In this document: positions 16,856 through 59,412 of the stretch, in pieces | Numbering within the stretch: position 1 is the first letter of the stretch | Layout: every line of letters starts with the position of its first letter | The notes under the pieces: model-generated | Seen by the model: only the letters and a program-made list of their open reading frames with translations | Database searches by the model: none | What the model was told of the DNA's origin: nothing | Program-made: the position numbers and the translations under genes | DNA from: Bacilli bacterium | GTDB lineage: Bacteria; Bacillota_I; Bacilli_A; RF39; UBA660 | Length of the DNA: 64,000 nucleotides | Direction: 5' to 3' | NCBI GenBank assembly: GCA_037071015.1 | Contig: JBAMOY010000001.1 | Span: 1,072,847-1,136,846, forward strand

Positions 16856-17743
16856 TTATTCCTTTACATTTATTATTTCTAATATACGATTTAAATCGGC
16901 GTCATTGGTAAAACCAATTATAATCTTATTATCCTTAATTTTAATCCTTGAATCAAATTTGTTTTCTAAAAGTTCTTCAACATATTTGTAATTATTATCT
17001 GTTTGTTTACGCTCAATTTTAATTTTACGATCCAACATAGGATTATCGCTAGCCATTTCCTCTAAACGACGAACACTAAAATTTTCATCAACTATTTTTT
17101 TAGCTAAATCGATAATTTTATCGTCGCCATCTAACTTACTAAGAACACGCGCATGCCCCATTGATATTTGTTTTTTGTTTACCATTTCTTGAACTTGCAT
17201 TGGCAAGCGAAGTAAACCTAACATATTAGTTATATGACTACGACTCTTACCCACTTTTAATGCTAATTCCTCTTGTGTTAAATTTAGATTATTTAACAAA
17301 TTTTGATAAGCTTGAGCTTCCTCAATAGCCGATAGGTTTTCACGTTGTAAATTTTCTAACAATGCTATCTCCATCATTTGTTCATCGGTAAAGTCTCGAA
17401 CAATAGCCGGTATTGATGTTAACCCAGCTAACTTACTGGCACGATAGCGTCGTTCTCCAGCAATTATCTCATATCCTTTTATACTTCTTTTAACAATAAT
17501 CGGTTGAAAAACACCATGTTCTTTAATAGATGACGCTAACTCTTTTAAGCTTTCATCAGTAAAAACAGTTCGTGGTTGATAAGGATTAGGACGTAATTGT
17601 TCTAACGGTATATCAATAATTTCTTCAGCACTAGTTGTTTCATAAATATTCTTTTCAATACTATTGATATCTATATTATCACTATTAAAGAGTTCTTCTA
17701 AGCCTCTACCTAACGCTCTTTTTTTATTTTCCATTTCTTTCAA
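16856..17743 (-). CDS. parB: chromosome partitioning protein ParB/Spo0J
   Basis: 295 aa. GERRYRAS ParB box and HTH. Downstream of parA. Confidence 0.92.
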   Translation of the reverse strand: MKEMENKKRALGRGLEELFNSDNIDINSIEKNIYETTSAEEIIDIPLEQLRPNPYQPRTVFTDESLKELASSIKEHGVFQPIIVKRSIKGYEIIAGERRYRASKLAGLTSIPAIVRDFTDEQMMEIALLENLQRENLSAIEEAQAYQNLLNNLNLTQEELALKVGKSRSHITNMLGLLRLPMQVQEMVNKKQISMGHARVLSKLDGDDKIIDLAKKIVDENFSVRRLEEMASDNPMLDRKIKIERKQTDNNYKYVEELLENKFDSRIKIKDNKIIIGFTNDADLNRILEIINVKE

Positions 17744-18509
17744 TCACTTCCTTTGCTAAATTTAAATATGCTTCTGTTCCACGACTCTGTGGATCATATG
17801 CAATAATTGGCTTCCCATGACTTGGAGCTTCAGATAATCTAACTAGACGTGGAATTATAGTATCATATACACGTTCTTTGAAATAACTCTTAATATCTTC
17901 TACTACTTCTAAACCTAAATTAGTGCGATTATCTAGCATTGTAAGTAAAACACCCTCAATATCTAATTGGGGATTTAAGTTCTTTTGTGCTAACATAATT
18001 GTGTTAAGTAATTGCATAATTCCTTCCAAAGCAAAGAACTCACATTGAACAGGAATAATAACTGAATCTGCGGCTGTCAAAGCATTAGTAGTTAGAATTC
18101 CTAAGGAAGGCGGACAATCAATAATTATATAGTCAAAAACATCCTTAATTGTATCTAGATTCTTTTTTAACTGACCACCCTTTGAAAAGCCCGGACGATT
18201 TCTTCCCATGTCAATTAATTCAATATCGGCACCAGCTAAATTAATAGTTGCTGGAATAACATAAAGATTTTTGAAATTAGTTTTAATAATAACCTCCGAT
18301 AGAATTGCTCTATCAGTTAATAAATCATATATGCTCTTACCAATATCACCCTTATTTATTCCAACACCCGTAGTAGTATTGCCTTGTGGGTCTAAATCAA
18401 TCAATAAAACCTTCTTCTTTAAAACACCTAAAGAGGCTGCCAAATTTATACTAGAAGTCGTTTTACCAACTCCTCCTTTTTGATTAACTAAAGCAATGAT
18501 TTTACCCAT
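17724..18509 (-). CDS. parA: chromosome partitioning ATPase ParA/Soj
   Basis: Start at MGKIIALVNQKGGVGKTT (deviant Walker A). The track ORF has 15 extra N-terminal residues. Confidence 0.9.
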   Translation of the reverse strand: MGKIIALVNQKGGVGKTTSSINLAASLGVLKKKVLLIDLDPQGNTTTGVGINKGDIGKSIYDLLTDRAILSEVIIKTNFKNLYVIPATINLAGADIELIDMGRNRPGFSKGGQLKKNLDTIKDVFDYIIIDCPPSLGILTTNALTAADSVIIPVQCEFFALEGIMQLLNTIMLAQKNLNPQLDIEGVLLTMLDNRTNLGLEVVEDIKSYFKERVYDTIIPRLVRLSEAPSHGKPIIAYDPQSRGTEAYLNLAKEVIERNGK

Positions 18510-18600
18510 ACTATCACCATTTTCTATATAGAATACTATAATATATTTTAACATATTATAGTAAATAAAGCTATTATATTTTTGAGTTTTATTTTTCTAT

Positions 18601-31200: not shown

Positions 31201-31565
31201 TTATTATATATCGTGGGTGACGGTAAGAATCGAAGATAGCCCATTAAATTAGTTATAATAATCTTTGGACAATTATCAAAACTATTATTTAAAACATTTA
31301 ATCTGTTAAGTTTTAATTCTGGACTAATTGCTAATGCTTCGCTGGTTAAAAAGTCATCCATAGGGAATAAATAAACGTCCTCCGTATATCCTTTAAATCG
31401 GCGGTAAAAAATATTAGCTTCATATAAAGAGTTAGTCACTAATATTTGAGTTTTATGTTTCTTATTAAAGCTTTCTAATAAAAATTGTACCTTCAATTCG
31501 TCCGATAAACCAATTATTTCCCGGGAAACATCATTAAATTTTATTAAATCGGTATATTTTACCAT
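28275..31565 (-). CDS. mfd: transcription-repair coupling factor Mfd
   Basis: Start at MVKYTDL with a GGTGGTGA RBS. UvrB-homology, RNAP-interaction and DEAD/helicase motifs (GDVGFGKTE, DEEQRFG). Confidence 0.93.
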   Translation of the reverse strand: MVKYTDLIKFNDVSREIIGLSDELKVQFLLESFNKKHKTQILVTNSLYEANIFYRRFKGYTEDVYLFPMDDFLTSEALAISPELKLNRLNVLNNSFDNCPKIIITNLMGYLRFLPSPTIYNNNIISISLNKEYNLKQLVKKLLDIGYFRESIVTKTGDMAVRGYVLDVFSTQTDNPVRIEFWGDTIDSIREFNIDSQRTVRNLNSFTIYPNNESLSTKGLLENHRNLFYEKDTTNLTGYFSSSDIYINNLDQINISYTELLEEMKTYRLNEKIDSNVFFMFDLDKLIIPSIKLFYDFSQEKKLQADYNIKTIKPFSKNIDKLSAELNSYMKKNKLMIISFKNRYKVNNFLDRVQNTNFVFTTLSELLDNKINLVVSPINEGYELDNLILITENELFGYNFLEERSIKYKNNLKIGSLVKNISKLDIGDYIVHQKHGIGRYCGLKTLTKNGLKKDYIMLEYKGGDKLYIPVEKIDAITKYSTKEGSIPKLNKLGGTEWQKIKLRARKKAQDIAGDLLKLYATREATKGYAFEKDTAEQLDFEREFNYQPTADQLKVTQEIKVDMEKPMPMDRLLCGDVGFGKTEVAFRAMFKAVMSGKQVAMLCPTTILSNQHYQNAINRFQSYPINIVLLNRFVSKTKINKIVKEIKNGIIDIVIGTHRVLSSDIIFKDLGLLVIDEEQRFGVKHKEKIKQMKNNIDVLTLSATPIPRTLQMSMTGIRNLSLIETPPVNKYPIQTYVVAENDQLIKDAIYKELSRSGQVFILNNRIDDMDFQIKRINKLIPEARVISAHGQMNKSELENVMNKFINYEYDILICTTIIETGIDIPNVNTLIIIDADHFGLSQLYQIRGRVGRGNNIAYCYLMYDKRKILSDIATKRLNVIKDFTELGSGFAIAMRDLSIRGAGDILGSEQAGYIDSVGIDTFLKMLDEEIKKAKGIKINEISVDDTQPLVDVQTSVDDSYVSDENLKIEIHKRINQIDNLETLENIKDELEDRFGKLDENLIIYMHEELFETLASELKINKIRQTKNFIEIILPLEISKNINIGDLFMETSYMTKMIRFSMRGKLVVLTLDIIKLDKHFIYYLIQILELIKKHIRH

Positions 31566-34527: not shown

Positions 34528-35481
34528 CTACACCTCCTTAAAAAATATCATTAGCTTGTCCAATAATAAATTTAAATTAATATTATAATAAATATTATCT
34601 CTTAAATTTATAAGCATATTAATTATTTCACATAATTTTTTTAAATCATATTTTTCAGCTATACTTTTTAATAAATCTATTTCAGAATTATAAAAATTTA
34701 TATTTCTATTTAACATTAAATTTATCACATCTTTATATATAAACATTAAAGATTCAAAATATATTATAGCATCATTTTTATCTTTTACAACATCATTATA
34801 TATTTTAGGAGCATAATAAAATAGTTCCTCTTTCTTATCTATGGTATAGCGCGCGAAATCTAATGCTGAATCAATAATTTTTAGTTGCGAATTATTTCCC
34901 AGGAAATTATTTTTATCATCACTACTAGAAAAAAGAGAATCTGCTAACAAACTATATTTATCTTCCGTAGAGTTAGAATTAGTAACTCTATAAAAAGAAA
35001 TTATCTGACACCTCGATACAATTGTTGGCAATAAATTGTATCTATTATCTGCAATTAAAATAGCAATAATATCATCAGCAGGTTCTTCTAAAAATTTCAA
35101 TATTGAATTAGCAGCTGAATTATTTAATTTATCGGCACCATTGATTATATATATTTTTTTGCTGGCTTCGATTGGTTTAGTAGAAAACTCTTTTTGTAAA
35201 TCATCCATTTGAGATTTTTTTATAATTAATCCGTCAGAATTGATAATCTTTAAATCTAAAAAATTATTATCGTCAATTCTCGCACAAAGATTACAATCAT
35301 AACAATCTTTATTAGGACAAAATATGTTTTTAGCAAAAGATTTAGCTATTGCTAAAACTTCGGAATTACCATTAGTTTCAAATAAATAAGCATGCGAATA
35401 ATTTCCACTATTAATTATATTTTCTAAAATCCTTATAGCAATAGGTTGTCCACATTTATATTTTTCAAACATACTTTCCAT
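34528..35481 (-). CDS. holB: DNA polymerase III delta' subunit
   Basis: 317 aa AAA-like clamp-loader fold and synteny. Confidence 0.85.
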   Translation of the reverse strand: MESMFEKYKCGQPIAIRILENIINSGNYSHAYLFETNGNSEVLAIAKSFAKNIFCPNKDCYDCNLCARIDDNNFLDLKIINSDGLIIKKSQMDDLQKEFSTKPIEASKKIYIINGADKLNNSAANSILKFLEEPADDIIAILIADNRYNLLPTIVSRCQIISFYRVTNSNSTEDKYSLLADSLFSSSDDKNNFLGNNSQLKIIDSALDFARYTIDKKEELFYYAPKIYNDVVKDKNDAIIYFESLMFIYKDVINLMLNRNINFYNSEIDLLKSIAEKYDLKKLCEIINMLINLRDNIYYNINLNLLLDKLMIFFKEV

Positions 35482-38933: not shown

Positions 38934-38940
38934 GTTTTAT

Positions 38941-39515
38941 ATTCTATGTTTCACGTGGAACATTATTATTTTATATTCTATGTTTCACGTGGAACATTAT
39001 TATTTTATATTCTATGTTTCACGTGGAACATTATTATTTTATATTCTATGTTTCACGTGGAACATTATTATTTTATATTCTATGTTTCACGTGGAACATT
39101 ATTATTTTATATTCTATGTTTCACGTGGAACATTATTATTTTATATTCTATGTTTCACGTGGAACATTATTATTTTATATTCTATGTTTCACGTGAACAT
39201 TATTATTTTATTCTATGTTTCACGTGGAACATTATTATTTTATATTCTATGTTTCACGTGGAACATTATTATTTTATATTCTATGTTTCACGTGGAACAT
39301 TATTATTTTATATTCTATGTTTCACGTGGAACATTATTATTTTATATTCTATGTTTCACGTGGAACATTATTATTTTATATTCTATGTTTCACGTGGAAC
39401 ATTATTATTTTATATTCTATGTTTCACGTGGAACATTATTATTTTATATTCTATGTTTCACGTGGAACATTATTATTTTATATTCTATGTTTCACGTGGA
39501 ACATTATTATTTTAT
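38941..39515. repeat. tandem array of 17 x 34-bp direct repeats, each carrying a canonical parS palindrome
   Basis: Unit is ATTCTATGTTTCACGTGGAACATTATTATTTTAT. Units start at 38941, 38975, ..., 39145; a degenerate 31-bp unit at 39179-39209; nine more units from 39210 to 39515. The core TGTTTCACGTGGAACA is the reverse complement of TGTTCCACGTGAAACA. Repeat-derived ORF translations have exact 34-aa periodicity, indicating near-perfect identity. Confidence 0.9.
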
Positions 39516-39520
39516 AGCGG

Positions 39521-39571: not shown

Positions 39572-42025
39572 TTATTCATAATCATTATTTTCTGTTTTAT
39601 CGTGAACAGTTTCTTCTTCTTTTTTTATAATTGCTACTGTACTAACTTTTTGCTCATTTTTCAAATTCATTAATTTAACTCCTTGAGCAACTCGTCCAGT
39701 TTTCGAAACTTGCTCAGAAGAAATTCTTATAATTATTCCACTATTAGTAACAATCATTAAATCTTCGTCACCTGATATTGTTTTAAATGCTACTATATTA
39801 CCATTTTTATCAGTTATGTTTAATGCTTTTACGCCTTTACTACCTCTATGTGTCATACGATATTCATCAATACTAGTTTTTTTACCATAGCCTTTTTCAG
39901 TAACAACTAATATTTCTTGATTACTTTCTCCTATTTCACAACCTACACAATATCCTTCTCCAACATCTATTCCTCTTACACCAGCTGCTGTTCTTCCCAT
40001 AACTCTAATTTCATTTTCATTAAATCTAATCATTCGGCCATTTGATGAAGCTATTAAAATTTCATTTTGACCATTTGTTTTTTTAACTGAAATTAATTCA
40101 TCATTTTCTTTTAATGTTATTGCAATCTTACCATTTACTCTGATGCTATCAAATTCGTTTATGCTAGTTCTTTTAATTAATCCGTTTTGTGTACAAAATA
40201 CAATAAATTGATTTTTATCAGTTTGACTAACTTTTAACATTGCTTTAACTATTTCATCTTTATCTAATGGCAATAAATTAACAATAGGAAGTCCCTTTGA
40301 TTGTCTACTAAATGATGGTATTTCATATCCTTTAACACGATATGCTTTACCTTTATTAGTAAAGAACATTAAATAGTCGTGTGTAGTTAACGAAACTATA
40401 TTTTCAACAAAATCTTCTTCATTAGTAGTCATACCTTTTATTCCTACTCCACCACGATTTTGTGTTTTATAAGTTTCACTAGTTATTCTTTTTATATAAC
40501 CTTTATTAGTCAAAGTTATAACAATATCTTCAACTGGAATTAAGGATTCGTCTTCAATATAATCAATAGCAGACATATCTATTATAGTTTTTCTTGGATT
40601 AGCATATTTTTCTTTTATCTCAATTAACTCATTTTTAATAACCTGTAATATTTTTTCCTCGCTAGATAATATATCTTTTAATGATTCTATTAATTTTAAT
40701 AAATTTTCTAACTCTTCTAGTATTTTTTCTTTCTCTAACCCTGTTAATTTTCTTAGTCTCATTTCTAGTATGGCTTCAGTTTGTATATCATCTAAAGAAA
40801 ATCTAGAACTTAATTGTTCTTTAGCAACTGCATCACTTTTTGCTTCTTTAATAATTTTAATAACTTCATCTATATTGTCTAAAGCTATTTTTAGACCATT
40901 TAAAATATGAGCTCTTTTTTGTGCCTTATCCAATTCAAATTGTGTTCTTCTATAAATAACTTCTTTTTGAAAATCTATATAATTGCTTATAACTTCTTTT
41001 AGGCCCATTATTTGTGGTTTTCCTTGATATAACATTAACATATTAATACCATAAGATGATTGTAGTTGTGTATGTTTATATAAATTATTTAATACGACAT
41101 TTGGGTTAGCATCTCTTTTTAATTCTATAACAATTTTCATACCATCTTTAAATGAAGTTTCTTCACGTAAGTCTGATATACCATCGATTATTTTGTCACG
41201 AACTAATTCTGCTATTCTCGTAATTAATGCGGAAGTATTAACTTGATAAGGGACTTCAGTAATTACTAATTCATACCGATCCTTTTTTTCATTAATATCT
41301 ACTTTTCCTCTAATTGAAATAGTTCCTTTTCCGGTTTCGTAAGCTTTCTTAATTCCACTATTTCCTAAAATACTACCACCAGTTGGAAAATCTGGACCTT
41401 TAATATATTCCATTAATCCTATCGTATCTATATCTTTATTATCTATATATGCAATACAACCATCAATGACTTCACCTAAATTATGTGGTGGAATATTAGT
41501 AGCCATTCCAACAGCAATTCCCATAGTGCCATTAACTAAAATATTAGGAAATCTTGATGGTAAAACTGATGGTTCTTTTCTAGAAGCATCAAAATTATCT
41601 TCGAAATCAACAGTATTTTTATTAATATCCCTTAATAATTCCATAGCGATTTTTGAAATTCTTGATTCTGTATAACGATAAGCTGCTGCTGTACTTCCAT
41701 CAATGGCTCCAAAATTTCCGTGTCCATCTATAAGTGTATGCCGGTAACTAAAATCCTGTGCCATTCTAACCATAGCATCATATACTGCAACATCACCATG
41801 TGGATGATAATTACCTATAACTGCACCAACAGTTTTAGCACATTTTACATAAGCTTTATCAGGAGTAAATCCAGATTCTAACATGGTGTATAATATTCTT
41901 CTATGAACCGGTTTTAATCCATCTCGTAAATCTGGTATTGCCCGGGAAATAATAACACTCATTGAATATTCAAGAAATGAATCTTGCATCTCTTTTACTA
42001 TATTACTATCTCTTAATTTATCCAT
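39572..42025 (-). CDS. gyrA: DNA gyrase subunit A
   Basis: 817 aa. Active-site Tyr region and C-terminal beta-pinwheel repeats. Confidence 0.95.
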   Translation of the reverse strand: MDKLRDSNIVKEMQDSFLEYSMSVIISRAIPDLRDGLKPVHRRILYTMLESGFTPDKAYVKCAKTVGAVIGNYHPHGDVAVYDAMVRMAQDFSYRHTLIDGHGNFGAIDGSTAAAYRYTESRISKIAMELLRDINKNTVDFEDNFDASRKEPSVLPSRFPNILVNGTMGIAVGMATNIPPHNLGEVIDGCIAYIDNKDIDTIGLMEYIKGPDFPTGGSILGNSGIKKAYETGKGTISIRGKVDINEKKDRYELVITEVPYQVNTSALITRIAELVRDKIIDGISDLREETSFKDGMKIVIELKRDANPNVVLNNLYKHTQLQSSYGINMLMLYQGKPQIMGLKEVISNYIDFQKEVIYRRTQFELDKAQKRAHILNGLKIALDNIDEVIKIIKEAKSDAVAKEQLSSRFSLDDIQTEAILEMRLRKLTGLEKEKILEELENLLKLIESLKDILSSEEKILQVIKNELIEIKEKYANPRKTIIDMSAIDYIEDESLIPVEDIVITLTNKGYIKRITSETYKTQNRGGVGIKGMTTNEEDFVENIVSLTTHDYLMFFTNKGKAYRVKGYEIPSFSRQSKGLPIVNLLPLDKDEIVKAMLKVSQTDKNQFIVFCTQNGLIKRTSINEFDSIRVNGKIAITLKENDELISVKKTNGQNEILIASSNGRMIRFNENEIRVMGRTAAGVRGIDVGEGYCVGCEIGESNQEILVVTEKGYGKKTSIDEYRMTHRGSKGVKALNITDKNGNIVAFKTISGDEDLMIVTNSGIIIRISSEQVSKTGRVAQGVKLMNLKNEQKVSTVAIIKKEEETVHDKTENNDYE

Positions 42026-54999: not shown

Positions 55000-55693
55000 T
55001 GATTTTCAAAATGAATTAGCAAAGATTAATATTATTTTGTCTGATAAACAATTAAATCAATTAAATCAGTATTATAATCTTTTAGTAGAGTGGAATAGTA
55101 AAATTAATTTAACAGGAATAACTGCTCAAAAAGATGTTTATTTAAAACACTTCTTTGATAGTTTAACTATTTGTAGAGTTATAGATTTAAGTTGTGAAAG
55201 TACTTTAGCCGACATTGGTACAGGCGCTGGCTTCCCAGGACTAGTTTTAAAAATTGCTTTTCCTCAATTAAAAGTTGATTTAATTGATTCATTAGGTAAG
55301 AGAACTGTTTTTTTGCAAGATGTAATTAATAAATTAAATTTAGAGAATATAAATGTTATTAATACTAGAGCTGAAGAATATGCGTTAAGTCATCGGGAAA
55401 TGTATGATGTGGTTACAGCCCGTGCAGTGGCCCCATTAAATATGTTATTAGAATATTGTTTGCCATTAGTTAAAGTAGGTAAATATTTTATTCCTTTGAA
55501 AGCTAACTGTAATGAAGAAATTTTAAATATAAATAATACTTTGGAAAAATTAAAGGGTCAAATTATTTTAATTGATCAATTTCAGTTACCGATAGAACAT
55601 AGTAATAGAACAATTATTAAAATTGTTAAACAGAATAAAACACCTAAAAAATATCCGAGAAAATTTAGTGAAATAAAAAAGAAACCATTATAG
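54989..55693 (+). CDS. rsmG: 16S rRNA m7G527 methyltransferase RsmG
   Basis: 234 aa. DIGTGAGFPG SAM motif. Confidence 0.93.
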   Translation: MNIDDFQNELAKINIILSDKQLNQLNQYYNLLVEWNSKINLTGITAQKDVYLKHFFDSLTICRVIDLSCESTLADIGTGAGFPGLVLKIAFPQLKVDLIDSLGKRTVFLQDVINKLNLENINVINTRAEEYALSHREMYDVVTARAVAPLNMLLEYCLPLVKVGKYFIPLKANCNEEILNINNTLEKLKGQIILIDQFQLPIEHSNRTIIKIVKQNKTPKKYPRKFSEIKKKPL

Positions 55694-55725
55694 AAAGATA
55701 ATAGTAATTTATCTTTCTTTTTTTG
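55693..55725 (+). terminator. rsmG intrinsic terminator
   Basis: AGAAAGAUA-loop-UAUCUUUCU then UUUUUUU. Confidence 0.6.
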
Positions 55726-55776
55726 GGAAATAATTTGGGAAATAATTTAAAAAGCATTGAAATATTTCCCAAATGA
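55723..55776. promoter_or_regulatory. Noc-binding-site-like half-site repeats upstream of the noc-like gene
   Basis: TTTGGGAAATAA appears twice as 12-bp direct repeats (55723, 55735), plus an inverted ATATTTCCCAAAT at 55761-55773. These are the two halves of the known Noc-binding palindrome ATTTCCC-GGGAAAT. Confidence 0.35.
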
Positions 55777-55813
55777 TAGTAAAATATACATAAAGAATAA
55801 AGAGGTGATGTTA

Positions 55814-57199
55814 ATGTATAAGGATAATCAACAAGTTATTAATATAAATCTTAATGATATTTTGCCGAACCGGTTTCAACCACGTTTAAAGTTTAATGAA
55901 GACGAAATAATAAATTTATCAGAATCAATAAAAGAACACGGTGTGATTCAACCAATCGTTGTGCGTAAATTAGGTGATCGGTATGAAATAATTGCTGGTG
56001 AGCGAAGAACTAAAGCGAGTATTATGGCAGGAAAAACTACTATTCCCGCTATTGTTGTTGACTTAAATGACAACGAAAGTGCTGAAGTTGCACTAATTGA
56101 GAATGTTCAACGTCAAGATTTAACCTCGATTGAAGAGGCCATTTCTTATCGCAAAATATTAGATATGGGATATTTGACTCAATCTCAATTAGCCGAAAAA
56201 GTGGGTAAAAAACAATCAACGATTGCTAATAAATTACGCTTGTTAACATTACCTAAAAGCGTTCAAGATGCTTTATTAGAAACTAAAATATCTGAAAGGC
56301 ATGCTCGTTCATTATTGAGATTAGATGATAAGCAAAAACAAGAAGAATTATTAGATAGAATTATAAAAGAACGTTTAACAGTTCGAAGAACAGATCAAGA
56401 AATAGATAAAATTATTAATTTAGATAAGATGGAGATATTAGATATACCGCTAGTCCCAGAAACAGTAAAGAAAGAAGATGATATCGTGAATGATAAAAGG
56501 TTTGATTTTGATGATATGATAATACCAACAACAAGTATTATTGATGGTAATTTAAATATTAATAAAGCGGATAATATAACTGAAGTAACTAATTTTAATA
56601 ATTCTGAAAATATTTCTAATCCAGGATTTATGGATATCGATAAAATAGCAGATCAAGCCCAGGATATTAAAAAGGATAATGTATCATTTGATTTACAACC
56701 TGATCAAATAATTCCTTCAATTCCTGAAGAACCAAAACCGGAAGAGATTCCAATGCCTAAATTTTTTAATATTTTAAATGAAACAAAACCGGTAGAAAAA
56801 TCCGAAACAGATGAAAAATCAATAAATAATGTATCTCCTTTAAACGGATTAGATATATTTAACGTTCAGAATACACAAACAGAACCAAAAACAATACCTG
56901 AACCAGATAATATATCTGTTTCTACTGTTACAGAACAACAGCCACCTGAAATCAAAATAGATAATGCCGTAATTTCTAATGATTTAGATGATATTGCCAT
57001 AATAGATGATAACACTTTTGTCAGCGAAGAAGTTCCTCAACAAGAAACGAAAATTGAAACTCATAAGCCTCTTTTAAAAGATGCTATTGCTGAAGTAAGA
57101 AATTTATCTCATAAATTAGAGAACATGGGATATATTATTGATATTGAAGAGATAGATTTTGAAGATTTATATCAAATTATTTTTAAGATTAAAAAATAA
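55814..57199 (+). CDS. noc: ParB-family nucleoid-occlusion-like protein (Noc-like) with long acidic C-terminal extension
   Basis: Start MYKDNQQ with an AAGAGGTGA RBS (alternative ATG at 55808). LPNRFQPR, IIAGERRTKAS (ParB box) and HTH. Position after rsmG as B. subtilis noc. About 260-residue D/E/P/N-rich tail after residue 200. Confidence 0.8.
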   Translation: MYKDNQQVININLNDILPNRFQPRLKFNEDEIINLSESIKEHGVIQPIVVRKLGDRYEIIAGERRTKASIMAGKTTIPAIVVDLNDNESAEVALIENVQRQDLTSIEEAISYRKILDMGYLTQSQLAEKVGKKQSTIANKLRLLTLPKSVQDALLETKISERHARSLLRLDDKQKQEELLDRIIKERLTVRRTDQEIDKIINLDKMEILDIPLVPETVKKEDDIVNDKRFDFDDMIIPTTSIIDGNLNINKADNITEVTNFNNSENISNPGFMDIDKIADQAQDIKKDNVSFDLQPDQIIPSIPEEPKPEEIPMPKFFNILNETKPVEKSETDEKSINNVSPLNGLDIFNVQNTQTEPKTIPEPDNISVSTVTEQQPPEIKIDNAVISNDLDDIAIIDDNTFVSEEVPQQETKIETHKPLLKDAIAEVRNLSHKLENMGYIIDIEEIDFEDLYQIIFKIKK

Positions 57200-57260
57200 A
57201 TATTTTATTAATTACATAAAAATATAGTCTTAATTTAAACTTAAAATTTATAAAGTGACA

Positions 57261-57290
57261 AAACAAGGATATATATATCCTTGTTTTATA
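57261..57290 (+). terminator. terminator: 22-bp perfect palindrome
   Basis: ACAAGGATATATATATCCTTGT then TTTATATT. Confidence 0.5.
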
Positions 57291-57462
57291 TTGTTTAATG
57301 CAACCAATTAATATATAATATTTTTAAGTAGACATTTATAATTTAATTATTATACATAAGTAAACAAATTTAAAATTTAGCTGATAATTGTAAAACTATT
57401 AATTATAAAATACTAATATTTATAAATTATTTAAATAAATAAATCAAAATTAGGAGGACTAT

Positions 57463-59412
57463 ATGTTTAAGTTAATATCAAAATATCAACCAGCCGGAGA
57501 TCAACCTCAAGCTATTGAACAATTAGTGTACAATATACAACAAGGCAATAATCAACAAGTTTTATTAGGTGCAACTGGAACAGGCAAAACTTTTACGATT
57601 GCTAATGTTATCCAACAAGTTAATAAACCAACATTGGTTTTAGCTCATAATAAAACTTTAGCCGGTCAATTATATAGTGAATTAAAAGAGTTATTTCCCA
57701 ATAATCATGTTGAGTATTTTGTCTCTTACTATGATTACTATCAGCCAGAGGCTTATGTAGCTAAAACTGACACATATATAGAAAAAGATGCTGCTATTAA
57801 TGATGAAATTGATGAGCTTCGTCATTCTGCTACTTCAGCATTATTGAATTATAAAGATGTTATTGTCGTAGCTTCAGTTTCTTGTATATATGGTATTGGT
57901 GAAATTGAAGAGTACCGCAATAAAATGTTGACGTTAAACGTTAATCAAGAATTTGATCGTAATGCGATTATGGAAAAATTAGTTGAAATGTTATATGAAC
58001 GTAACAATATTGATTTAAAGAGAGGTACTTTTCGGGTGCATGGTGATGTTTTAGAAATCATTCCTATAAATCAACATACAAAAGGGCTTAGAATCGAATT
58101 TTTTGGTGATGAAATTGACCGTATTAGCGAATTTGATGTTATTACTGGTGCTATTTTGTCTGATAAAAAAACAGTGAGTATATTTCCTGCTAGTCACTTT
58201 GTTACGTCTGATGATAAATTACAAAAAGCTATAGCTAATATTCGTGTAGAATTAGAACAGCAACTTACAAAGTTTAAAAGTGATAATAAATTATTAGAAT
58301 ACCAACGATTAATGGAAAGGACCAATTATGATTTAGAAATGTTATCAGAAACTGGTTTCTGTCGTGGCATTGAAAATTATTCCCGTCATATGGCTTTAAA
58401 AAAAGCAGGAGAAACTCCAACTACCTTAATGGATTTTTTTGGCGAAGATTATTTACTTATAATTGATGAATCACATGTGACAATTCCACAGGTGCGTGGG
58501 ATGTATAATGGTGATCGTGCTCGTAAAGAAGTGTTAGTTAATTATGGCTTTCGTCTGCCTAGCGCTCTTGATAATCGACCCTTACAATTTGATGAATTTG
58601 AAAAAAAAATAAAGCAAGTTATTTATGTATCTGCGACACCAGGAGACTACGAATTAAATCATTGTCAGAATAAAATTGTTGAACAAATAATTCGACCTAC
58701 AGGATTATTAGATCCTGTTATTGAAGTCCGCCCAACTAATGGTCAAATTGATGATCTAATTAATGAAATAAATACTAGAATTGAAAACAATGAACGAGTA
58801 TTAATAACAACTCTAACCATTAGAATGGCAGAAGAATTAACTGCCTATTTGCAAAAAATGAATATTAAAGTGGCTTATCTTCACAATGAAATAAAGACAC
58901 TAGAAAGATTAGAAATAATTCATGATTTAAGAGTTGGTAAGTATGATACAGTTGTAGGTATTAATTTGCTTCGTGAAGGTATTGATATACCAGAAGTTAG
59001 TTTGATTGCTATCATGGATGCTGATAAACAGGGATTTTTACGAAGTGAACGTAGTTTAATTCAAACAATTGGTCGAGCTGCACGTAATGCCAATGGTAAA
59101 GTTATAATGTATGCAGATACAATTAGTGACGCAATGCAAAAAGCTATCGCAGAAACAGAAAGAAGACGTCAAATTCAAATTACCTATAATCAGGAACATA
59201 ATATTATTCCTAGAACGATAAAAAAGGAGATTCGTGAAATTATTTCTAATACACCAAAAAGCAATATTTCTAAAAGAAAAAAATTAAGTAAAACTGATAA
59301 AATATCATTAATGACTACTTTGGAACATGAGATGCGTCTTGCTGCTGAACAATTGGATTTTGAAAGAGCTATGCAATTACGAGATGCATTATTTGAATTA
59401 AAAAGCGAATAA
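57463..59412 (+). CDS. uvrB: excinuclease ABC subunit B
   Basis: 649 aa. [10 protein letters not shown], helicase motifs, C-terminal UvrC-interaction helix. AGGAGG RBS. Confidence 0.95.

Follow-up and report, generated by a model that had tools for sequence, protein, structure and literature searches.

A 64,000-nucleotide stretch of a Bacilli bacterium genome (GenBank assembly GCA_037071015.1, contig JBAMOY010000001.1, positions 1,072,847 to 1,136,846; the whole stretch is called the window here) carries, at 55814..57199 on the plus strand, a gene encoding a 461-residue ParB-family protein that belongs to a Noc-derived orthologous lineage and is not a canonical Noc. This protein, referred to below as the Noc-like protein, runs from a Noc N-terminal domain through a Noc DNA-binding domain and a disordered insertion of about 215 residues to a Noc C-terminal domain. 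We consider it fairly probable that it is a Noc variant in which these domains were kept and the N-terminal membrane-targeting module was lost, with its output borne by an acidic linker containing conserved motifs and with autorepression through half-sites of the Noc-binding site (NBS) in its own promoter. Relatives were collected in a GTDB species-genome scan that yielded at least 584 loci, and the locus analyses were performed on 80 kept loci, of which 76 contained complete genes.

The assignment to the ParB/Spo0J/Noc superfamily was clear from the domain searches. The ParB N-terminal domain, which binds cytidine triphosphate (CTP) in this superfamily (residues 7-99; 55832..56110, plus strand), matched Pfam PF02195 (ParB_N) with 105.5 bits against a cut-off of 26.3 (E 1.5e-30), the helix-turn-helix (HTH) DNA-binding domain (residues 101-205; 56114..56428, plus strand) matched PF17762 (HTH_ParB, over residues 101-200) with 114.6 bits against a cut-off of 22.6, and TIGR00180 gave 180 bits against a cut-off of 58.45. 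The CTP-pocket motifs NRFQPR, GERR (62-65) and ENVQR (96-100) are all present, and the GERR box and ENxQR contain the equivalents of B. subtilis Noc R89 and N121. When 50 homologues were aligned, NRFQPR and residues G62, E63, R64, R65, E96, N97, Q99 and R100 were invariant. With these motifs intact, the Noc-like protein is predicted to bind CTP. Its best sequence match in the PDB was Noc (Geobacillus 7nfu, 207 bits; B. subtilis 7ol9, 184 bits), with B. subtilis Spo0J at 164 bits, and its identity to canonical Noc proteins was 49-54% across the first 200 residues. A Foldseek search with the AlphaFold2 model likewise returned 7nfu (E 2e-21) and the NBS-bound Noc DNA-binding domain 6y93 (TM-score 0.89-0.93). 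With the whole model as query, only the N-terminal and DNA-binding domains were recovered; the top Noc structures are C-terminally truncated or consist of the DNA-binding domain alone, so they cover no C-terminal fold.

The residues that discriminate NBS from parS are of the Noc type. Four positions of the DNA-binding domain, numbered 173, 179, 184 and 201 as in Caulobacter ParB, read RTAG in ParB and QKKR in Noc (Jalal et al. 2020, PMC7383237). Adenine 1 of the site is recognized by Q173 and cytosine 6 by R201, on condition that a lysine occupies either 179 or 184, and ParB shows absolute conservation of R173 and G201 (PMC7383237). Alignment to Noc and ParB structures placed Q134, K140, T145 and R162 of the Noc-like protein at these positions, three of the four being identical to Noc. 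Among 120 family members, Q173 and R201 were invariant and K179 was found in 112, with N, T or K at position 184. Because Q173, R201 and one lysine, at 179, are all present, the rule of PMC7383237 predicts NBS specificity for the Noc-like protein. The sequence-only reading, which was made from the letters of the window without database searches, had taken the gene for a Noc-type ParB paralogue and had proposed such an alignment as a check; the outcome, Noc-type and not Spo0J-type residues, upholds that identification. The features of ParB (Spo0J) itself were not found in the protein, which has Q and R instead of R173 and G201, lacks an LGRGL peptide and has no neighbouring parA.

The C-terminal end of the protein, first described as a short hydrophobic segment, turned out to be a folded domain of the Noc dimerization type and not a membrane segment. 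In the AlphaFold2 model, residues 421-460 form a helix (421-437) and two strands (441-448 and 453-460) at a predicted local confidence (pLDDT) of 86-88, and we delimited the domain as residues 420-461 (57071..57196, plus strand) from this model, a family profile and a profile-profile comparison. A hidden Markov model (HMM) of the last 60 residues of the family matched residues 241-283 of B. subtilis Noc end to end with 27.4 bits, whereas the best of 2000 composition-matched shuffles reached 7.3 bits and the Spo0J of the window 0; the B. subtilis sequence was confirmed as NOC_BACSU by exact look-up. Comparison with the C-terminal domains of 131 canonical Noc proteins by hhalign gave a probability of 97.8% (E 1.1e-12, 47 columns). 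A scan of the last 61 residues alone against NCBIfam returned nothing relevant; the homology became apparent only through the family HMM and the profile-profile comparison. Nearly all of the 76 complete genes end in an ...EE.D.ED.YQ.I.KI.K motif.

About 259 residues follow the HTH domain, and because the last 42 of them are the Noc C-terminal domain, what had appeared to be an appended tail is an acidic disordered insertion of about 215 residues that replaces the short basic linker of Noc. This linker (residues 206-419; 56429..57070, plus strand) was delimited by composition and by AlphaFold2; it abounds in D, E, P, N and I, has a net charge of -29 and was modelled with a pLDDT below 50, residues 207-415 being disordered except for a helix at 275-281. 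In the 131 canonical Noc proteins, the linker comprises 6-17 residues with a charge of +2 to +8, whereas in the family it comprises 73-474 residues (median 255) and is net negative in every one of 193 members (-11 to -81). In the ratio of nonsynonymous to synonymous substitution rates (dN/dS), the N-terminal and DNA-binding domains stood at 0.01-0.016, the linker at 0.23-0.26 and the C-terminal domain at 0.12-0.15, values that show the linker to be fast-evolving yet constrained.

A second departure from canonical Noc lies at the N-terminus. In Noc, a 10-residue amphipathic helix, helix alpha2 and an 8-residue loop are confined to the Noc family and are required for CTP-gated membrane binding and nucleoid occlusion (PMC8429893). 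All 131 canonical Noc proteins start with MKH[PST][FL]SR[FL]F, usually MKH[PS]FSRFFGLG. In contrast, alignments of the Noc-like protein begin at its residues 4-7, which correspond to Noc residues 24-27, and among the matches listed the ParB box is preceded by only 4-8 residues in 119 of 120 homologues. In 75 of the 80 loci there is no start codon at a distance of 10 codons or more upstream of the one chosen, which leaves no room for a longer N-terminus. The 26-residue membrane-targeting module was thus missing throughout the family in the alignment, in the homologue starts and in the upstream codons, and the initial impression of a short N-terminus without an amphipathic helix holds well beyond the window.

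Within the linker, conserved islands were found, namely motif A, an LL-P element and motif B. Motif A (NPGFMDIDKIADQAQDI, N269-I285; 56618..56668, plus strand), with the consensus NPGFMD[IV]xKIExxAxDI, was detected in 124 of 194 family members; it contains the sole confident helix of the linker (275-281, pLDDT about 75 with AlphaFold2), and its P270, G271, F272, I278, A282 and I285 are each at least 90% conserved in the 50 homologues. As a possible mimic of the FtsZ C-terminal peptide, with which it shares a P-x-F-[LM] core, it is kept only as a lead. Motif B (PKFFNIL, P315-L321; 56756..56776, plus strand), with the consensus [PG][KR]FFN[LIFM][LF], was detected in 151 of the 194 members. It is amphipathic and can be likened to SRFFGLG, the membrane-targeting sequence of Noc: it has a hydrophobic moment of 0.60-0.67 versus 0.48-0.62 for the B. 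subtilis sequence, it is the linker 9-mer of highest moment in 60 of the 194 members, and within B. subtilis Noc its position-weight matrix scored highest on residues 4-14, SFSRFFGLGEK. A profile of the module from motif A to motif B, run against 1.84 billion representative proteins, was confined to this family and gave no functional clue. It produced 143 matches; among the 128 new ones, 109 had the ParB N-terminal and DNA-binding domains, and of the remaining 19, 18 had the family C-terminal domain and resembled C-terminal fragments of the family. The linker alone, scanned against NCBIfam, gave nothing relevant.

The region directly upstream of the gene carries three half-sites of the NBS. 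Repeat 1 (TTTGGGAAATAA, 55722..55733, minus strand) and repeat 2 (the same sequence at 55734..55745, minus strand) are exact matches; the half-site GGGAAATA within repeat 1 occupies 55725-55732 and reads TATTTCCC on the minus strand, and that of repeat 2 follows at 55737-55744, 12 bp from it. An inverted copy (TTTGGGAAATAT/ATATTTCCCAAA, 55762..55773, plus strand) places the half-site TATTTCCC at 55763-55770. The sequence-only reading had taken these repeats to be separated halves of the Noc-binding palindrome, and this proved exact: each carries the full 8-bp half-site, including both bases, A1 and C6, by which NBS and parS are told apart. The inverted copy falls within the spacer of a predicted sigma-70-type promoter (TTGAAA-17 nt-TAAAAT, 55757..55785, plus strand, 10 of 12 matches), which is the best promoter-like site on the plus strand within 55600-57500. 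The consensus of 36 orthologous loci has the same layout, TTGAAT-TATTTCCCAAAATATAG-TATTAT, and in 27 of these 36 the proximal half-site starts 49-58 nt before the start codon.

At least one half-site was found within 150 bp upstream of the gene in 37 of 78 loci. The density upstream was 5.6 per kb, compared with 0.107 per kb in the rest of the loci, and because of this 52-fold enrichment the cluster is not due to chance. The spacing between directly repeated half-sites was 21-23 bp for 14 of the 16 pairs. Some orthologous loci have an inverted second copy instead, giving an inside-out palindrome, GGGAAATATTTCCC; five exact copies of the perfect form TGGGAAATATTTCCCA were present in the loci versus none expected. 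Perfect inside-out palindromes of back-to-back half-sites were observed 73-84 bp upstream of the gene at L005:5908, L008:5898, L010:5905 and L021:5915. The half-site is followed by AAA at 47 of 66 upstream sites, compared with 9 of 93 elsewhere. Half-sites persist in strain-level relatives, with repeat 2 kept in loci L085 and L086; in L085, the half-site nearest the promoter has degenerated to TATTTCCAAAA, and the two distal repeats survive unchanged. The species with this layout have proteins 60-75% identical to that of the window in the N-terminal 200 residues, and the loci with half-sites track the long-linker clade bearing motif A. The suggestion that the repeats form an autoregulatory operator is compatible with their conservation and promoter position, and we regard them as a putative operator to which binding is predicted. 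No half-sites were found in five canonical (Bacillaceae) rsmG-noc intergenic regions. Elsewhere, a further half-site, TTATTTCCCAAT, occurs at 57691-57702, a short way downstream of the gene and inside the 5' portion of uvrB, and the canonical noc locus of Metabacillus litoralis (L089) contains a parS-like palindrome, ATGTTTCATGTGAAACAT, between rsmG and noc, about 85-100 bp upstream of noc.

Full NBS palindromes were also assessed. With one mismatch or fewer allowed, the window contains three sites versus none expected: TATTTCCCGGGAAACA (31515-31530), TATTTCCCAGGAAATT (34893-34908) and TATTTCCCGGGCAATA (reverse complement, 41936-41951). All three lie on one side of the origin, flanking an array of parS sites. 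In 880 kb of related loci, seven perfect 16-mers and 16 sites with one mismatch or fewer were found versus 0.1 expected, and full NBS palindromes are therefore enriched in this lineage, where they are mostly intragenic, as in B. subtilis. In some relatives a full NBS occupies the place of the half-sites (L054 at -94, L011 at -91 and L072 at -164). In L001, L002, L003, L005, L008 and L016, moreover, rsmG harbours a full or near-full NBS in its 3' end, at -266 to -303 relative to the start of the Noc-like gene; no NBS was found at the equivalent place in the window.

The window encodes a separate soj-spo0J pair (16859-18554, minus strand), which has mscS and ftsH as neighbours and stands some 30 kb away from the origin, apart from rsmG and the Noc-like gene. 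Its Spo0J (16859-17743, 295 residues) carries R173 and G201 together with the ParA-interaction peptide KKRALGRGLEELF, and its C-terminal domain is of the ParB type. In the parS array (38935-39516), a 34-bp unit is repeated in tandem 17.2 times with 98% matches, each unit containing the consensus parS TGTTCCACGTGAAACA. The array occupies the gap that separates tadA and gyrA, at a distance of about 9 kb from the dnaA/rnpA origin region; the soj-spo0J pair accounts for it. The sequence-only reading had proposed that this genome reorganized its ParB/Noc-DNA interactions, but a canonical soj-spo0J with parS-type residues and near-perfect NBS palindromes in the window and the lineage give no obvious sign of such a change. 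Spo0J shares the superfamily and fold of the Noc-like protein, with 47% identity across residues 6-195, and both are likely CTP clamps; it differs in its parS-type residues, ParA peptide, adjacent ParA gene, short linker and other C-terminal domain.

Compared with Noc of B. subtilis and Geobacillus thermoleovorans (TIGR04285; PDB 7nfu, 7ng0, 7ol9, 6y93), the Noc-like protein shares the position after rsmG, the CTP motifs, the Q/K/R specificity, the NBS enrichment and the C-terminal domain. It lacks the MKHxFSRFFGLG helix, helix alpha2 and the loop; its linker is acidic and about 215 residues long instead of basic and 6-17 residues, with motifs private to the family; and it has NBS half-sites in its own promoter, unlike the five Bacillaceae noc loci. 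Agreement with Noc in its specificity residues, in the NBS sites, in the C-terminal domain and in synteny led us to file it as a Noc variant; TIGR04285 and the membrane module, in which it fell short, kept it from being called canonical.

Several observations weigh against this interpretation. The NCBIfam model for Noc, TIGR04285, scored the protein at 271.9 bits, below the cut-off of 315, and aligned only model positions 1-196 of 255; it gave ten short-linker relatives 258-291 bits and the Spo0J of the window 247. The short-linker relatives had been candidates for passing the cut-off or covering the C-terminal domain of the model, and none of the ten did either. Specificity position 184 is T here and N in most relatives, not K. 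Judged from the missing N-terminal module, the canonical nucleoid-occlusion mechanism cannot operate as described. Only weak evidence (p about 0.03) backs the match of motif B to Noc, and since the motif had been selected as [KR]FF the comparison is in part circular; moreover, acidic residues flank motif B, unlike typical membrane-targeting peptides, and AlphaFold2 gives it no fold. The 64-kb window contains no perfect 16-bp NBS, and its three near-sites are all in coding DNA. In addition, half-sites are present in only 47% of the orthologous loci, mostly tracking one clade, and proteins of the ParB family normally load on palindromes, half-site binding being usually weak.

Four other explanations were considered. 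That the long tail is an artefact of a frameshift, a mis-assembly or read-through was suggested only by its low-complexity look, and is refuted: the identical 461-residue product is present on at least 23 independently assembled contigs, the 76 complete orthologues, from different species, end in the same conserved in-frame C-terminal domain, and the linker, with a dN/dS of about 0.25, contains conserved motifs. The tail, noted at the outset as far longer than that of Noc, is therefore real, and the frameshift fusion against which that claim had been hedged did not materialize. It is highly improbable that the Noc-like protein is the centromere-binding ParB of the chromosome acting on the 17-copy parS array. 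A ParB-family protein near oriC and a large array in the same window would fit such a role, but a separate soj-spo0J with a ParA peptide and R173/G201 is present, and the Noc-like protein has Q173/R201, no ParA peptide and no adjacent parA.

The remaining two alternatives concern the promoter. The upstream repeats might be bound by another factor or be functionless remnants of an ancestral full NBS; a full NBS does stand at the same place in L054, L011 and L072, the proximal site of L085 has decayed, and half of the loci are without half-sites. We consider this unlikely, given that all 8 bases agree with the NBS, A1 and C6 among them, and that the 52-fold enrichment, the 21-23 bp spacing and the fixed spacer position recur across species whose proteins are 60-75% identical. 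The distal copy is not a duplicated promoter, because it has no -35 or -10 of its own. Distinctly unlikely, in our view, is a Noc-descended, KorB-like clamp that mainly controls its own or other expression and has left nucleoid occlusion. The lost membrane module and the conserved operator-like sites precisely in the promoter spacer speak for this idea, as do significant Foldseek matches of KorB structures to the model; KorB is a ParB-family CTP clamp that silences promoters (PMC11790492). However, the AAA-extended half-site is essentially confined to this promoter (the only exact copies in the window are here, and 9 of 93 sites elsewhere carry the extension), the NBS palindromes are mostly intragenic and fit chromosome-wide nucleation better than a regulon, and no KorA-like partner gene adjoins in the flanks of the loci. 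KorB of plasmid RK2 resembles the Noc-like protein as a ParB-family protein with sites at promoters, putative ones in the case of the latter, but the identity is only 28-30%, and its operators are palindromes at many promoters where it works with KorA, whereas the half-sites here lie at one promoter. KorB also has a flexible linker between its DNA-binding domain and a separate C-terminal dimerization domain.

Under the Noc-variant interpretation, the protein would nucleate on the NBS (TATTTCCCGGGAAATA) and close into a CTP-dependent sliding clamp, as extrapolated from work on B. subtilis and Geobacillus. The effector function may have shifted from the N-terminus to the linker motifs, held on a long polyanionic tether, with motif B as the best candidate for a weak membrane-binding peptide and motif A as a candidate partner-docking helix. 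Possible outputs are a membrane tether through motif B, direct contact of motif A with a partner from division or segregation, an electrostatic, polyanionic brush around NBS-loaded DNA, a DNA mimic or a much larger clamp lumen. Autorepression would result from DNA-binding domains on the half-sites, one of which lies between -35 and -10, and the flexible linkers would allow both DNA-binding domains of one dimer to reach non-palindromic sites 12-26 bp apart. In P. aeruginosa, ParB is found in vivo on single arms of its palindrome, from which it does not spread, and it represses parS-bearing promoters (PMC5961200). Its half-sites are scattered and mostly intragenic (PMC5961200), whereas those of the Noc-like gene are clustered, phased and conserved at its own promoter. 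On the evidence of its predicted specificity and promoter sites, the Noc-like protein probably binds NBS and represses its own promoter. Only tentatively do we put forward the fuller proposal, which as a whole we think somewhat unlikely, that this is a Noc lineage without the CTP-gated anchor that acts through tether motifs, that nucleoid occlusion, or what replaced it, proceeds by an undescribed mechanism, and that half-site autorepression depends on the flexible linker.

The genome is low in G+C (28%), and the window is its origin region. By eye, dnaA-dnaN-recF-gyrB-gyrA were recognized on the minus strand, and rnpA-yidC-jag-mnmE-(ZIP transporter)-mnmG-rsmG, followed by the Noc-like gene, on the plus strand. 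The order mnmG-rsmG-gene was found in the window and in every locus with upstream flank, with an intervening gap in a few loci, which substantiates the initial placement of the gene where noc sits, after rsmG. In L066 and L070, soj-spo0J lies directly 3' of the Noc-like gene; in the window it is elsewhere. In L085, the protein of which is 84% identical, uvrB is replaced downstream by a gene for an AAA_23/SMC_N-type ATPase (L085:1881-2186). The program-made open reading frame opens at TTG 55757, but the true start is almost certainly ATG 55814 (stop TAA), because a ribosome-binding site (AAGAGGTG, 55800-55807, plus strand) lies 6 nt 5' of it and all gene callers and homologues start with MYKDNQQV. 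A start at TTG 55757, which would add MKYFPNDSKIYIKNKEVML, was rejected: no ribosome-binding site precedes it, its position is that of the -35 hexamer, and it is not conserved. A terminator-like hairpin of rsmG was read from the letters at 55693..55724 (plus strand; GAAAGATAA-loop-TTATCTTTC followed by seven T), and its T-run extends into repeat 1; the terminator scan did not call this hairpin, the stem of which has only two G-C pairs. The same scan detected an intrinsic-terminator-like hairpin 3' of the gene at 57260..57287 (plus strand).

The 80 kept loci come nearly all from metagenome-assembled genomes labelled Bacilli, Tenericutes or Mollicutes, and the few other bin labels are probably mis-assigned. 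Among the matches listed, 120 database clusters had lengths of 411-635 residues, all with the long tail, and the 76 complete orthologues ranged continuously from 318 to 718 residues; among the representative proteins of the family, lengths reached 982. In comparison, the 131 canonical Noc proteins used here are 279-298 residues long (265-298 in the clusters listed). Searching the literature for Noc from Mollicutes-like bacteria, or for Noc with a disordered linker, turned up no description of such proteins.

This form of Noc is common in uncultured gut bacteria. Its current annotation is the generic 'ParB/RepB/Spo0J partition protein'. It constitutes a natural clade of hundreds of species-level genomes that keeps the predicted clamp, NBS specificity and C-terminal domain without the Noc helix. 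It thereby raises the questions of how division is kept off the nucleoid without the known tether and what the linker motifs bind, of what a clamp with a far larger DNA-entrapping lumen would do on DNA, and of whether split half-sites may serve as an operator for a protein of the ParB family.

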